The translations under genes and the position numbers were made by a program. From assembly GCA_965227295.1 (NCBI GenBank), contig OZ245742.1, positions 2,400,001-2,464,000 of the forward strand: DNA of 64,000 bases, read 5' to 3'. Shown here piece after piece: positions 43,369-47,676 of the stretch. This DNA is from Leptonemataceae bacterium (GTDB lineage: Bacteria > Spirochaetota > Leptospiria > Leptospirales > Leptonemataceae). Position 1 is the first letter of the stretch. The number at the start of each line of letters is the position of its first letter. Below the pieces are notes generated by a model. It saw only the letters and a list, made by a program, of their open reading frames with translations, had not been told where the DNA came from and ran no database searches.

Positions 43369-43941
43369 ATGGCATCGATCGCGGTTATCGCCGGTCTGGG
43401 CAATCCCGGAGAGAAGTATCGCATGACGCGGCACAACGCGGGCTTTCTGGTCGTGGAGGAACTGGCGCGCCGTCTGAACGTTCCATTGAGCGATCAGAAA
43501 TGGAAGGCCGAGTTCGGTCGCGGACGGGCGCGGGTACCCCGGGGCGACGGGAGTGAGATAACCTGCGACGTGGTGCTGCTGAAACCCCTGGACTTCATGA
43601 ATCACAGCGGACGTTCGGTGGGCCCGGCGCTGAAATTCTTTCAGGCCGGAGTGGACGATCTGCTCGTGGTGCACGACGAAAGTGAGATTGCCTTCGCCGA
43701 ACTGCGAACCAAGGTCGGTGGCGGCCACAAGGGGCACAACGGCCTGCGGGACATCATCGATCAGACCGGCTCCCGGGATTTCCATCGCTTGCGGGTGGGC
43801 GTCGGCCGGCCTGCCGAGGGCCGCGGCCTGGCCGATTACCTGCTGGGGCCTTTCAGCAAGGACGAGCAGGGCGAACTCCCCCATCTTGTGGACCGCGCCG
43901 TGGATGAGTCTCTCAAATGGCTGGCTGCCCGGGCCGGCTGA
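43369..43941 (+). CDS. pth: Peptidyl-tRNA hydrolase
   Basis: GLGNPG..Y..TRHNAGF, KP..FMN.SG, VHDE, GHNGL, RLRVGVGRP. Confidence 0.95.
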   Translation: MASIAVIAGLGNPGEKYRMTRHNAGFLVVEELARRLNVPLSDQKWKAEFGRGRARVPRGDGSEITCDVVLLKPLDFMNHSGRSVGPALKFFQAGVDDLLVVHDESEIAFAELRTKVGGGHKGHNGLRDIIDQTGSRDFHRLRVGVGRPAEGRGLADYLLGPFSKDEQGELPHLVDRAVDESLKWLAARAG

Positions 43942-44093
43942 ACGTTTGCGGCCTGTGAATCCTTCCCACCCCGGCAAACTCTGCCGAAATCTCCTGATTC
44001 CGCCTGCCTCCGGCGCAAAAATTCATTGCGATTTTAGTGAGGTCTCATCAATATTTAGTGAGCATATGCAGGTGCATTTGCGTCGGATAAGGC

Positions 44094-44414
44094 ATGGCGT
44101 CACAGGCTGGAACACAACATCGGAACCTCGAACTCCGCACCGAGGCCAAGCTGGAGTACTGGGACGAAAGCTATCCTGATCACTGTCGCACGCTGTACGC
44201 GGACTGGATGCGGGCCGGAGCGCGGCAAGAGGACGGCCAGGTCATCTGGAGACAAATGGCCCGGCAGGAACTGAACCGGAACCGCGGCCTGGCCCTCTAT
44301 CTCCGCGAGCGCCTGGGCGCCGGCGACGACGCCGAGCGGCGTCTCATCCAGGATGTGATCCGTTCTCCCGAGCATACCTCGTCGAGCTACCACTCGGTTC
44401 CGTCCGGGGTTTGA
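44094..44414 (+). CDS. Hypothetical protein
   Basis: 106-aa ORF with genome-like GC3 usage; no motif; lies immediately upstream of the tandem repeat array. Confidence 0.55.
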   Translation: MASQAGTQHRNLELRTEAKLEYWDESYPDHCRTLYADWMRAGARQEDGQVIWRQMARQELNRNRGLALYLRERLGAGDDAERRLIQDVIRSPEHTSSSYHSVPSGV

Positions 44415-44438
44415 TTTTGTGGTACGCCGGTGCCACAA

Positions 44439-45494
44439 CTCTTGAACTATCGGAAAGTTTTATTTGTTCGAGTACGCCCCGAATCGTGATGTAAGTTGCG
44501 GACAGTGTGCATTAAGGCCTTTATGGTTACGGCTGGTTCCAGCAGATGAGCGGAGGTCATGCCGGGGAATGTGGTAAGGCGCACCGGAACGGCGTCTTCG
44601 CCGTAGGAAACGCTCCGGTAGCTGAGTCACAAACCGACGTCCGGTGTCGGCAAGGCCCCGCTTGTTGGGGCCGCGGCAGTTGGTTCCCCACTGGCGGACT
44701 ATCTTAACAAGACGAAAAACCACAACTCCCGCTTCGCTGTAGCCAAAAAAGCCCTTCACGATTGCGCAATTTAGCTGATGTTTCTCGCGGCAACCGCTGC
44801 GAACCGCAGCTCTTGATCTACCGGAAAGTTTTATTCGTTCGAGTACGCCCCGAATCGTGGTGTAAGTTGCGGCCAGTTTGGATTAAGACTTTTATTGGTA
44901 CAGCTGGTTCCAGGCGACCACGGAGGTCATGCCGGGGAATGTGGTAAGGCGCACCGGAACGGCGTCTTCGTCGCAAGAAACGTTGCGGGAGCTGAGTCAC
45001 AATCCGACGTCCGGGTCGAACACAGCGTTCTTAGCAAAACGAAAATCCACAACTCCCGCTTCGCCGTAGCCAAAAAAAGCCCTTCAACGTTTTACGACTT
45101 ACTTCACGTTCCTCACGGCAACCGCTGCGAACCGCAGCTCTTGAACTACCGGAAAGTTTTATTCGTTCGAGTATGCCCCGAATCGTGGTGTAAGTTGCGG
45201 CCAGTGTGCATTAAGGCCTTTATGGTTACGGCTCGTTCCAGGCGACCACGGAGGTTGTGCCGGGGAATGTGGTACGGCGCACCGGAACGGCGTCTTCGCC
45301 GTAGGAAACGCTGCGGGAGTTGAGTCGTTAACCGACGTCCGGGTCGAGGCGGACTATCTTAACAAAACGAAAATCCACAACTCCCGCAAAGCTGTAGCCA
45401 AATCAACCCCTCAGCCATTGCGCAACTTACTTTATGTGTCTCACGGCAAACGCCGTGAACCGCAGCTCTTGAACTACCGAAAACGTTTGATTTG
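44439..45494 (+). repeat. Tandem array of three long non-coding units (371, 328, 328 bp) plus a partial fourth; candidate structured RNA
   Basis: Unit start CTCTTGA(A/T)CTA(C/T)CG(G/A)AAA recurs at 44439, 44810, 45138 and 45466; long shared blocks between units; no conserved ORF. Confidence 0.9.
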
Positions 45495-45510
45495 CTTCGA
45501 GGAGTATCCT

Positions 45511-46311
45511 TCAGCGCAAATCGTATTCGTCCACGAAGCCGGCGACGGCGTCGAAGTATTTGTCGACGTGCATAAGAATGTCGTTGTGTCCCGCGTCCAG
45601 GATGCACTTGCGTTTACGATCATGGGGCACGGCTTCGAAGTTTTCTTCGGCCTGTTCCGGCGGGAGCAGGTAATCACTCGCGCCGTGGATGATCAGAACC
45701 GGTAACTGTAACTCTTTTAATTTTAAGTGATTCGAGAATTCCGTGTAGAGGCGCTGCTCGTGTTCGCCGGCATCGATCTGAAAGAGACGCAGCAGGTGGC
45801 GTACATCGCTGAAGCCGCTTTCCAGGATGAGGCTGCTGAAGCGTTCGGACATCTCCCGGGCGAGCAATGCCGCCGGCCCGCTGCCCAACGAACGGCCGAA
45901 GAGAATCGGCCGCGGGGCCCCGGAGTCCGCCGCCCCGAGTTGCGCGAGCTCGTTCAGGAAAAACTCGGCGGCGGGAATCGCATCCGAGCGCAGGTTCCGC
46001 GGCGTGGGTTTGCCGTCGCTCCAGCCGTAGCCGCGATAGTCGACCATGAACAGGTTCAATCGAATGCGATGATAGTACGGCGCGATGGCGTCATAGTCGG
46101 AGACGATCTCGCCGTTGCCGTGAAACGCAAAGACCGTCGGCCACGCCGGATCGGCGAGATACCAGCGCGCGCCCAGGGAGGTCGTGTCTTCTACGGGGAT
46201 GTCATAGTCGCGAGCGTTCGGCGGCGGATCGTTCCGGAACTTGCGAGGAAAAAAGATCGCCGCGGCAAACTCGGGATCACTGAGGAATTGTTCGTAACTT
46301 CTGCCGGGCAT
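45511..46311 (-). CDS. Alpha/beta hydrolase (ABHD/BEM46-like)
   Basis: FHGNGE, DYRGYG, GRSLG, IHGASD, AGHND. Confidence 0.9.
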   Translation of the reverse strand: MPGRSYEQFLSDPEFAAAIFFPRKFRNDPPPNARDYDIPVEDTTSLGARWYLADPAWPTVFAFHGNGEIVSDYDAIAPYYHRIRLNLFMVDYRGYGWSDGKPTPRNLRSDAIPAAEFFLNELAQLGAADSGAPRPILFGRSLGSGPAALLAREMSERFSSLILESGFSDVRHLLRLFQIDAGEHEQRLYTEFSNHLKLKELQLPVLIIHGASDYLLPPEQAEENFEAVPHDRKRKCILDAGHNDILMHVDKYFDAVAGFVDEYDLR

Positions 46312-46328
46312 ACTTTAACAATCTTTCC

Positions 46329-46438
46329 ACTCCGAGGACCGAGTTACCGAGTCAAGAAAACCGAGCGCCGTCATAGCCCGCGTGCTTGAAGCAAACGAAA
46401 GCCTCCACAAAAAACCTCGGCCCCTCGGTCCTCGGAGT
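46329..46438. repeat. Intergenic element with ~24-bp imperfect inverted arms (copy C)
   Basis: ACTCCGAGGACCGAGTTACCGAGT (46329-46352) ... CCTCGGCCCCTCGGTCCTCGGAGT (46415-46438). Confidence 0.75.
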
Positions 46439-46455
46439 CGGATCTTTTACAGAAT

Positions 46456-47676
46456 TCAGTCGTCGTTCTGATAGATCTTTTTCAGATCACCCGCGATGTT
46501 TTTTTGCATGGCCTCGTTCGTGCCGCCGCCGATGCTCAGTAGAATGGCGTCGCGCAGCATACGTTCCACCGGATACTCGCGGATGTAACCGTAGCCGCCC
46601 AGGACCTGGATGGCGTTGCGTGCCACGCGTTCGGCCATGTTCGTGGCGACGAGTTTCGCGGACGCGGCGCCGAGAGAATTGCGCGAGTCCGGATTGAGCT
46701 TCGCGGCGACGTCGTAGACCAGGGTCTTCGCGGCCAGGTAGTCCGCGTAGCTCTCGGAGAGGAGTCGCTGGATTTGCCCGTGATCCACGAGGGCTTTGCC
46801 GAAAGACTTGCGATCGTTAATGGAATAGTTCGCCATCTCGTCGATGCAGCGCCGGGCGATGCCGATGGACTGCGCCGCCAGCGTGACGCGTTCGATCTCC
46901 AGATTGCGCATCATCGATTTGACGCCTTTGTTCTCGGCGCCCAGTAAGTTCTCCGCGGGAACTTCTAAGTCCTCGAAGTACAGGACGCAGGTGTTCGAGG
47001 CCTTCATACCCATCTTGCGCTCTTTCTTGCCGACCTGAAAGCCCGGCCACGCGCTCTCAATGAGGAAGGTGGTCATGGCCTTTTCGTTCGGATCCAGCTT
47101 TGCGTAGATGCAGAAGTAGTCGCCGACGTCGCCGTTCGTAATGAACTGCTTCGCCCCGTTGAGCACGTAGCGATCGCCCTTCTTCACGGCGGTGGTGCTC
47201 ATGCCCAGGACGTCCGTGCCGACGGAGGGTTCGGTCATGCCCATGCCGCCGACCTTCGAACCGTCCAGGACGCCCGGCAGGTACCGGCGGCGCTGTTCAT
47301 CGTTCGCGTTCACGAACATGTTGTTCACGAAGAGTACCTCGTGGGCGAGGTACGAGAGCGTAAACGCCGGATCGGTGCGGGACAGCTCCTCATGCACAAT
47401 GCACTCGGCCACGGCGTCCATGCCGGCCCCGCCGTACTCCTCGGGGACCGTGAGGCCGAAGAGGCCCAGTTCGGAGCCCAGGCGCCGGAAGAGTTCGATG
47501 TTGAAGGTCTCCGACTCGTCGTATTGCTCCGCCTGGGCTTCGACTTCGCTCAGGCTGAATTTTTCCACCATCTCCCGGAGTTCCCGATGCGCGGGAGTAG
47601 GGTTGAACAGATCGTGGGTGTCTTTTTCGAGATTTTCCGGGGATGCTTGCGGGGAATTTGCTGCGATGGCCGTCAT
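46456..47676 (-). CDS. Acyl-CoA dehydrogenase (isovaleryl-CoA dehydrogenase-like)
   Basis: GMTEPSVGTD, NGAKQFITNG, KMGMKAS, LEIERV, IQVLGGYGY, IGGGTNE. Confidence 0.92.
   Translation of the reverse strand: MTAIAANSPQASPENLEKDTHDLFNPTPAHRELREMVEKFSLSEVEAQAEQYDESETFNIELFRRLGSELGLFGLTVPEEYGGAGMDAVAECIVHEELSRTDPAFTLSYLAHEVLFVNNMFVNANDEQRRRYLPGVLDGSKVGGMGMTEPSVGTDVLGMSTTAVKKGDRYVLNGAKQFITNGDVGDYFCIYAKLDPNEKAMTTFLIESAWPGFQVGKKERKMGMKASNTCVLYFEDLEVPAENLLGAENKGVKSMMRNLEIERVTLAAQSIGIARRCIDEMANYSINDRKSFGKALVDHGQIQRLLSESYADYLAAKTLVYDVAAKLNPDSRNSLGAASAKLVATNMAERVARNAIQVLGGYGYIREYPVERMLRDAILLSIGGGTNEAMQKNIAGDLKKIYQNDD

Follow-up and report, generated by a model that had tools for sequence, protein, structure and literature searches.

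Intergenic repeats described so far in bacteria are mostly tens of bases long, as is the case for REP, BIME, BOX and MIRU elements and for heptamer arrays. MIRUs are dispersed minisatellites of Mycobacterium tuberculosis with units of 40-100 bp and frames coupled to neighbouring genes, and BOX and NIME elements are built of modules of tens of bases with flanking inverted-repeat modules, at about a hundred or more loci per genome. REPs are described as palindromes of 20-40 bp in alternating orientation (PMC2817692, PMC3733652), with termination, mRNA stabilisation and protein binding among the roles proposed (PMC2817692, PMC3733652, bioRxiv 10.64898/2026.03.23.713779). Here we describe a tandem array of ~330-bp non-coding units in a stretch of 64,000 nucleotides from a Leptonemataceae bacterium, referred to as the window (C1:2400001-2464000 of the single-contig source genome, G000; 5,938,550 bp, 59.8% G+C), and compare it with copies in the rest of that genome and in two congeneric genomes, G001 and G002. 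We judge it somewhat better than an even chance (probability about 0.55) that the array belongs to a species-specific family of mosaic intergenic repeats, of the BIME, BOX or MIRU kind, with an unusually long unit.

A tandem repeat family dispersed through one genome

An earlier reading made from the letters of the window (the sequence-only reading) had placed tandem units at 44439, 44810, 45138 and, in part, 45466. The same units were recovered by Tandem Repeats Finder (period 328, 2.5 copies, 83% matches, span 44697-45501), by unit alignment and by a 330-position family profile, the latter two giving three full units and a partial fourth with homology to ~45509 (Table 1). The array takes up the whole gap between two convergent genes. 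The BLASTN check for other genomic copies proposed in that reading found many (318 pieces in 108 clusters of G000), and the profile gave 318 matches, a number well outside chance, at 115 intergenic loci, covering 74,937 bp or 1.26% of the genome; 115 of these matches cover at least 300 model positions. At 113 of the 115 loci the units lie on one strand only, and the mean pairwise identity among 50 full units is 79%.

The arrays are distributed unevenly over the types of intergenic gap, with 54 in convergent, 53 in tandem and 8 in divergent gaps against 21.8, 70.5 and 22.7 expected (chi-square p = 5e-14), which corresponds to a 2.5-fold enrichment in convergent gaps and a depletion before promoters. 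Expectations were taken from 4,093 gaps between 4,866 genes, called by a crude codon-usage gene caller made for the analysis. Orientation in tandem gaps is mixed (23 arrays co-directional with the genes, 30 opposed), which argues for tolerance of position and not for a strand-specific role. The start or end of an array often lies 0-30 nt from a stop codon, many arrays beginning within ~20 nt of one, and the median gap is ~655 nt with an array versus 46-125 nt without. Array density is fairly even over the chromosome (8-12 per 500 kb). Neighbouring arrays are often separated by 1-6 kb, share an orientation and occupy successive convergent gaps (for example G000:C1 47426-53469, 5142674-5159931 and 2984747-2989219); by eye, close pairs number ~17, with roughly 13 expected under random spacing. 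No flanking gene family is enriched (the largest cluster holds 6 of the 433 flank genes), and the flanks are unrelated ordinary genes.

To an assembly or collapse artefact we assign next to no weight: the units differ by 13-23% and their flanks are unique. Moreover, in two independent short-read runs the flanks have depths of ~200 and ~10, and repeat words occur 20-200 times more often than that, so the copy number is real. The short-read contigs of both runs fragment inside the array; no piece spans it, and the joints found are cross-matches between repeats.

The ~330-bp unit is a composite. Array starts cluster at about model positions 1, 20-27 and 145-186 and array ends at about 165-216 and 313-330, some running a few tens of bases further, and solitary loci are of three kinds, covering about 20-165 followed by a GC-rich hairpin, about 145/185-328, or about 20-330. 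From these phases and from the solitary copies of A, of B and of A with hairpin, it follows that two non-coding modules with no relation to each other, A (~145 bp) and B (~150 bp), alternate in head-to-tail order along the arrays, GC-rich hairpin modules being an optional addition. Apart from the shortest ones, profile matches are parts of arrays or solitary copies, and none lies within a larger element.

One of the optional modules, hairpin H (~57 nt), has an inner stem and loop that do not vary and, beyond an internal loop, an outer stem of 13-14 bp. The folding energy of intact copies is about -31 to -60 kcal/mol, and in at least seven variants of the stem both arms change together, in a compensatory manner. 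H occurs in 42 copies at up to 3 mismatches, all in G000 and always on the array strand, where it either substitutes for the short-hairpin region of the unit or precedes a re-start of the unit. A probe that includes ~40 nt of module A placed 158 of 159 merged matches within arrays or at most 150 nt from them, and roughly 20 arrays end in H (by eye). The array in the window is without H and carries a different hairpin insertion in unit 1, which replaces 5 nt for a net gain of 43 nt, the reason for the 371-bp length of that unit; the insertion holds a 6-bp GC stem (44654-44659/44667-44672) and a patch similar to part of module A. A short imperfect palindrome forming a stem-loop, as in REP, describes H and the unit 1 insertion but not modules A and B, which make up the unit. 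At other arrays (for example near C1:4856511 and 3226237) the inserted module forms a shortcut from B to A, a hint that modules recombine at microhomologies.

Units resemble each other more closely within arrays (86.0% identity, 59 pairs) than between arrays (78.9%, 6,496 pairs), and 45 of the 83 units in multi-unit arrays have their nearest neighbour in the same array (median best identity 87.6%). A variant specific to first units was considered and rejected, first units being 18 A-type and 11 B-type and later units 77 and 37. Under the repeat-family reading, arrays would grow and shrink through unequal homologous recombination or slippage between units, which would also swap short patches by gene conversion. 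New loci may be seeded without target-site duplication, whether by ectopic recombination, by array fragments or excised unit circles that insert again, or by an enzyme acting in trans, and copies would persist where promoters stay undisrupted. By analogy with proposals made for REP, the hairpin modules would most likely serve as stem-loops at transcript 3' ends, as terminators or stabilisers.

Table 1. Features of the array, its flanks and foreign-type copies. Positions are those of the window, except in the last two rows, which refer to G000:C1.
Feature	Position	Strand	Basis and remarks
Upstream flanking open reading frame, 106 aa, no family	44094..44414	+	ends just before the array
Degenerate tail of preceding unit (~model 313-330)	44421..44438	+	by eye; not covered by profile match; directly 3' of upstream stop codon
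Unit 1, 371 bp, model 1-330 plus insertion	44439..44809	+	alignment and profile; 77% identity to unit 3
Insertion module in unit 1	44645..44692	+	alignments; same module present at other arrays
Unit 2, 328 bp	44810..45137	+	Tandem Repeats Finder, alignment, profile; 84% identity to unit 3
Unit 3, 328 bp	45138..45465	+	Tandem Repeats Finder, alignment, profile; closest copy elsewhere in genome 87%
Module A of unit 3 (~model 20-165)	45157..45302	+	solitary copies (usually with H after them) and array start/end phases; approximate coordinates
P1 5' arm of unit 3	45190..45199	+	partner 45421-45430; inverted repeat of invariant blocks; no covariation support
Module B of unit 3 (~model 170-330)	45307..45465	+	solitary copies and array phases; approximate coordinates
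P3 5' arm of unit 3	45312..45322	+	partner 45378-45388; perfect in unit 3 only
B core of unit 3, invariant blocks with variable fixed-length spacers	45335..45404	+	sole part with relatives in two congeneric genomes
Partial unit 4 (~model 1-43)	45466..45509	+	ends at stop codon of convergent hydrolase gene
Downstream flanking gene, alpha/beta hydrolase, convergent	45511..46311	-	Hydrolase_4 5.5e-15, Abhydrolase_1 4.1e-14
Foreign-type copies	1527226-1527516, 776285-776590, 1378562-1378855, 5640622-5640924		
Foreign-type copies, continued	4461422-4461665, 1423576-1423761, 3619084-3619171, 1339365-1339692		

The 106-aa open reading frame (ORF) upstream of the array has no Pfam family, its best match (GNT-I, E = 0.021) lying below the cut-off, and a peptidyl-tRNA hydrolase gene is found further upstream. 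A 103-aa ORF occupies the syntenic place in G002, a match by position.

Coding potential and RNA structure

That no reading frame is conserved between the units, as the sequence-only reading had observed, was borne out across the family. Conserved stops break the frames, conservation by codon position (0.829, 0.826 and 0.862) shows no relaxation at third positions, and no conserved small ORF emerged from the stop map and the consensus frames. ORFs inside the array have no Pfam match; a 142-aa ORF has a single match among 5.8 billion proteins, which is itself from G000. A small minus-strand ORF resembling a type I toxin was rejected, its start codon not being conserved.

The principal proposal of the sequence-only reading, a large structured RNA of the plus strand with conserved nested stems, found no backing in Rfam matches, covariation, excess stability, promoters or convincing terminators. 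The stems themselves are as described in unit 3, where P1 and P3 are exact inverted repeats and P2 pairs with two G-U pairs. The six pairs of the P1 core and most of those in P2 persist over the 115 full units because both arms sit in invariant blocks; the partners, in contrast, do not covary, and P3 is poorly kept, with 4 of its 11 pairs forming in less than 30% of units. Where one arm of P1-P3 varies, its partner varies independently: pair 61/288 is GC in 82 units and AC in 26, and pair 94/258 is GC in 52, AC in 36, GU in 19 and AU in 8, which is near the product of the margins. A covariation test of P1-P3 in the 28 units that best match unit 3 by BLAST gave 78.3% of cells paired versus 78.9% in shuffles, 497 of the 500 shuffles being at least as high, and one double-change pair versus 2.8 expected. 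The compensatory swap reported for an alternative small hairpin is present in the window, whereas ~200 copies show no association at its sites (164/181, 167/178 and 169/176).

Scans of a wider kind gave the same picture. Among all possible stacks of at least 4 pairs there were at most 9 double-change cells and no covariation. Sites 209 and 242 (TA in 189 copies, CG in 8) were considered and rejected, as the 8 CG copies form one old, mostly solitary subfamily and so represent one evolutionary event, which is no evidence of pairing. The strongest mutual-information pairs all lie at most 38 nt apart and are not Watson-Crick; they were likewise rejected as helices and reflect local haplotype blocks and misaligned hairpin variants.

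A search of Rfam returned no relevant match at E<=10 in 43500-46500, only two irrelevant weak matches outside the units, and no tRNA or tmRNA was found in the array. The RNAalifold consensus fold of 50 units over 330 columns is weak in both directions (plus strand, -16.0 kcal/mol; minus strand, -23.1 kcal/mol), and the folding energies of 20 units do not differ from those of dinucleotide shuffles, 30 per unit (mean z: plus strand +0.42, minus strand 0.00). No sigma-70-like promoter was found in the array, and its terminator-like matches are unconvincing and not common to the three units; sigma-54-like and ECF-like promoter motifs noticed by eye at the unit junction were set aside as unconvincing too. 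Taken together, these results incline us, by a slight balance of probability, to regard the stretch as repeated DNA rather than an RNA gene.

Relatives, dispersal and competing explanations

Outside G000 the family is sparse. A whole-unit query matched 2 of 41 genomes, G000 included, the other being G002 with two weak matches. Searched as a pattern, the B core has 149 occurrences in G000, 9 in G002 and 2 in G001, and none in 153 other genomes of the order (reversed-pattern controls, 0). The pattern also hit 24 stretches in a collection of species representatives; the profile confirmed 10 of them (E<1e-4), and these come from two congeneric assemblies. Matches in metagenomes (55 stretches) were rejected: none of the 55 has the downstream block, and they look like chance or coding matches. 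What is conserved elsewhere is the ~75-110-nt B core; foreign copies are single, ~75-130 nt long, with the same invariant blocks and spacer lengths as G000 copies, and have ordinary genes as neighbours, among them those for IMP dehydrogenase, aldehyde dehydrogenase and thiolase and one that is FliN-like. For comparison, five orthologous protein pairs between the three species are 52-84% identical. Rfam gave no match at E<=1 for 11 loci of relatives, and the cross-species B core has no consensus fold (-0.1 and -2.8 kcal/mol on the two strands).

Neither G001 nor G002 has any match to hairpin H or to the best block of module A, which G000 holds in 191 copies. With up to 3 mismatches allowed, a 19-nt stretch of module A at model 145-163 was found 21 times in G001 versus 3 for the reversed control and 11 times in G002 versus 2, a mild enrichment for which a coding or compositional origin is possible. 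Eight copies in G000 are of the foreign type, having two base states of the G001 and G002 core; they are mostly solitary and more diverged, and may be an older layer that gave rise to the array-forming subfamily. The gap syntenic to that in the window has no profile match at E<=10 in G001 and G002, and two of three G002 sites have no array beside the gene's best match in G000, taken as its ortholog. Positional conservation with G002 was therefore rejected, given that one of three tested gaps has a G000 array, on the opposite strand, which is compatible with chance.

Several findings weigh against assigning the array to a mosaic repeat family. No mechanism of dispersal was identified. As to target-site duplication, the longest word shared between the two flanks averages 5.17 against 5.20 in mismatched flanks, a test of limited power because array boundaries are fuzzy; long terminal inverted repeats were not seen, the one inverted match near the monomer ends being imperfect and 7 nt long (by eye). 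A search for Y1 transposases (RAYT, PF01797) gave 0 in G000 with a control positive in 6 of 14 genomes, and one for Y2 transposases gave no match in G000, though the control of that search stayed silent. The gene contexts rest on the crude gene caller, and array orientation shows a mild bias towards the leading strand (72 of 115 arrays, p = 0.009, versus 53% of genes; origin and terminus positions inferred from GC skew). Among units taken one per array (68 arrays), 144 of the 330 sites are at least 95% conserved and 89 are below 80%. Furthermore, three foreign copies have extra hairpins at one point, two G002 copies holding different hairpin sequences at the same spot, and the retention of the B core in three species, as judged from sequence comparison, suggests a sequence-specific partner and some function, and not merely junk.

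A claim of purifying selection drawn from the heterogeneity among sites was withdrawn after a singleton test and a comparison with what would be a coalescent-type expectation. Singleton changes, at 0.58, 0.65 and 0.34 per site, are evenly spread between "conserved" and "variable" positions, and the variable sites are shared alleles linked over ~40 nt or less, so no claim of selection is made from G000 alone. We judge this pattern to be one of old shared alleles shuffled by short-tract conversion; the conservation could then be explained by shared ancestry and gene conversion.

A rival idea is that the arrays are transcribed, each unit having its own promoter or transcription coming through from the upstream gene, and act as RNA with little or only local structure, for instance as 3' untranslated region elements, processed small RNAs or sponges. 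Insertion of hairpins of differing sequence at one place is common in RNAs, and this idea gains from the different hairpins at one insertion point in the two G002 copies, from the substitution of the short-hairpin region by the long hairpin H at the same unit position, from the invariant blocks and fixed-length variable spacers that the B core has in all three species, and from the many arrays that begin within ~20 nt of a stop codon. We nevertheless hold it to be unlikely, if worth taking seriously, in view of the lack of Rfam matches in G000 or relatives, of covariation, of folding energy beyond that of shuffles, of a cross-species core fold (-0.1 and -2.8 kcal/mol), of a sigma-70-like promoter or clear terminator, and of a preferred orientation in tandem gaps (23 with the genes, 30 against).

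Conservation of primary sequence without base-pairing, with fixed spacer lengths between invariant blocks, is also what would be expected if the units were arrays of DNA binding sites for a sequence-specific protein, such as an architectural or nucleoid protein, a topoisomerase or a recombinase, as reported for BIMEs. The fairly even spread (8-12 arrays per 500 kb) and a function independent of orientation to genes would fit as well. No candidate protein was identified, however, the blocks are neither dyad-symmetric nor internally repeated (by eye), and conservation within G000 is explicable without selection, which leaves this explanation quite improbable. A related proposal, which makes the 330-bp unit itself a working part and more than tolerated DNA, is in our estimate distinctly unlikely: the family would be either a new kind of bacterial "satellite" whose spread involves no transposase, target duplication or terminal repeats, unit circles for example being excised and inserted again, or an array of unit-length modules that are transcribed or bound, the B core being recognised by a dedicated protein or RNA partner.

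We strongly doubt that the arrays are non-autonomous mobile elements spreading through a multimeric intermediate, rolling-circle DNA or RNA copied by reverse transcriptase, that inserts as concatemers cut at variable phase. The head-to-tail arrays with variable start and end phases and the lack of target-site duplication accord with this, as do 10 reverse-transcriptase (RVT_1) matches in G000, several of them identical copies. Yet the phases cluster at module borders and are not random; near-identical dispersed copies are lacking (median best identity 87.6%; neighbour in the same array for 45 of 83); neither Y1 nor Y2 HUH transposases were matched (the Y2 control being silent); and no ribozyme or intron model matched, with no Rfam intron match in the window array. 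A linked transposase or reverse transcriptase, which the sequence-only reading suggested looking for, did not turn up: no transposase is linked to the arrays, G000 has no Y1 match, and the 10 reverse-transcriptase loci all lie more than ~6 kb from the nearest array. The RVT_1 matches fall into sets of identical score (2+1+2+4 copies) and a lone one in a 341-aa open frame, at places such as G000:C1 40883-41494, 765390-766001 and 32821-33507, none adjoining a repeat array; they look like several active group II intron families, perhaps with a retron or DGR-type reverse transcriptase.

The fallback of the sequence-only reading, a non-autonomous folded mobile repeat, comes close to the data. The family is dispersed, non-coding and high-copy, and some members have hairpins with compensated stems.

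Comparison with known repeat systems

Large structured bacterial non-coding RNAs such as OLE, GOLLD, HEARO/omega RNA and ROOL are defined by covariation-supported helices and are in Rfam. The 330-bp family resembles them in size (~300 nt), in its non-coding nature and in the occurrence of multiple copies in some genomes; it differs in lacking an Rfam match, covariation and excess stability. The case cautions annotators that neatly nested inverted repeats, when seen in a single copy of a repeat family, do not count as evidence of RNA structure. The LDR and Sib/Ibs repeats of E. coli are long direct repeats encoding type I toxin-antitoxin pairs, with a conserved small hydrophobic ORF and an antisense RNA. 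These repeats, also tandem, intergenic and a few hundred bases long, likewise came to notice first as repeats, but they occur in few copies, whereas the present family has ~300 units and no conserved small ORF.

Set beside the REP and BIME elements of Enterobacteria and Pseudomonas, the family is alike in being high-copy, non-coding and intergenic, in forming modular mosaics in regular arrays and in having GC-rich stem-loops. Its extragenic position, mostly at gene 3' ends (54/53/8 versus 21.8/70.5/22.7), is likewise REP-like. It is unlike them in its period of 330 bp, in modules that are all direct, in ~85% of the unit being non-palindromic and in the lack of a detected RAYT (Y1 transposase) gene; nor does it alternate in orientation (113 of 115 loci single-strand). 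BOX of Streptococcus pneumoniae and NIMEs of Neisseria are also modular and intergenic, with a tandemly repeated inner module at about a hundred or more loci, but their modules of tens of bases are bounded by inverted-repeat modules, whereas those described here are ~150 bp long and no terminal inverted repeats were found. MIRUs share the head-to-tail arrangement of one family at dozens of intergenic loci with variable unit number; their 40-100-bp units have small frames overlapping neighbouring genes, in contrast to a composite unit with no conserved frame. The target-site duplication of MITEs, and terminal inverted repeats shared with an autonomous element, found no counterpart in the family.

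A limited literature search found no description of dispersed tandem arrays of such long units in bacteria. The family stands out for its ~115 loci, its direct tandem arrangement and its share of more than 1% of a compact genome with no recognisable mobilising gene. Comparison of closely related strains could reveal how long repeats spread and homogenise in a bacterial chromosome, and could also show whether arrays insulate convergent genes. Mosaic intergenic repeats are a known kind of element; a 330-bp unit of two direct, mostly non-palindromic modules sets this one apart from REP/BIME, BOX/NIME and MIRU, and gives it more in common with satellites or higher-order repeats of the eukaryotic style than with the elements usual in bacteria.

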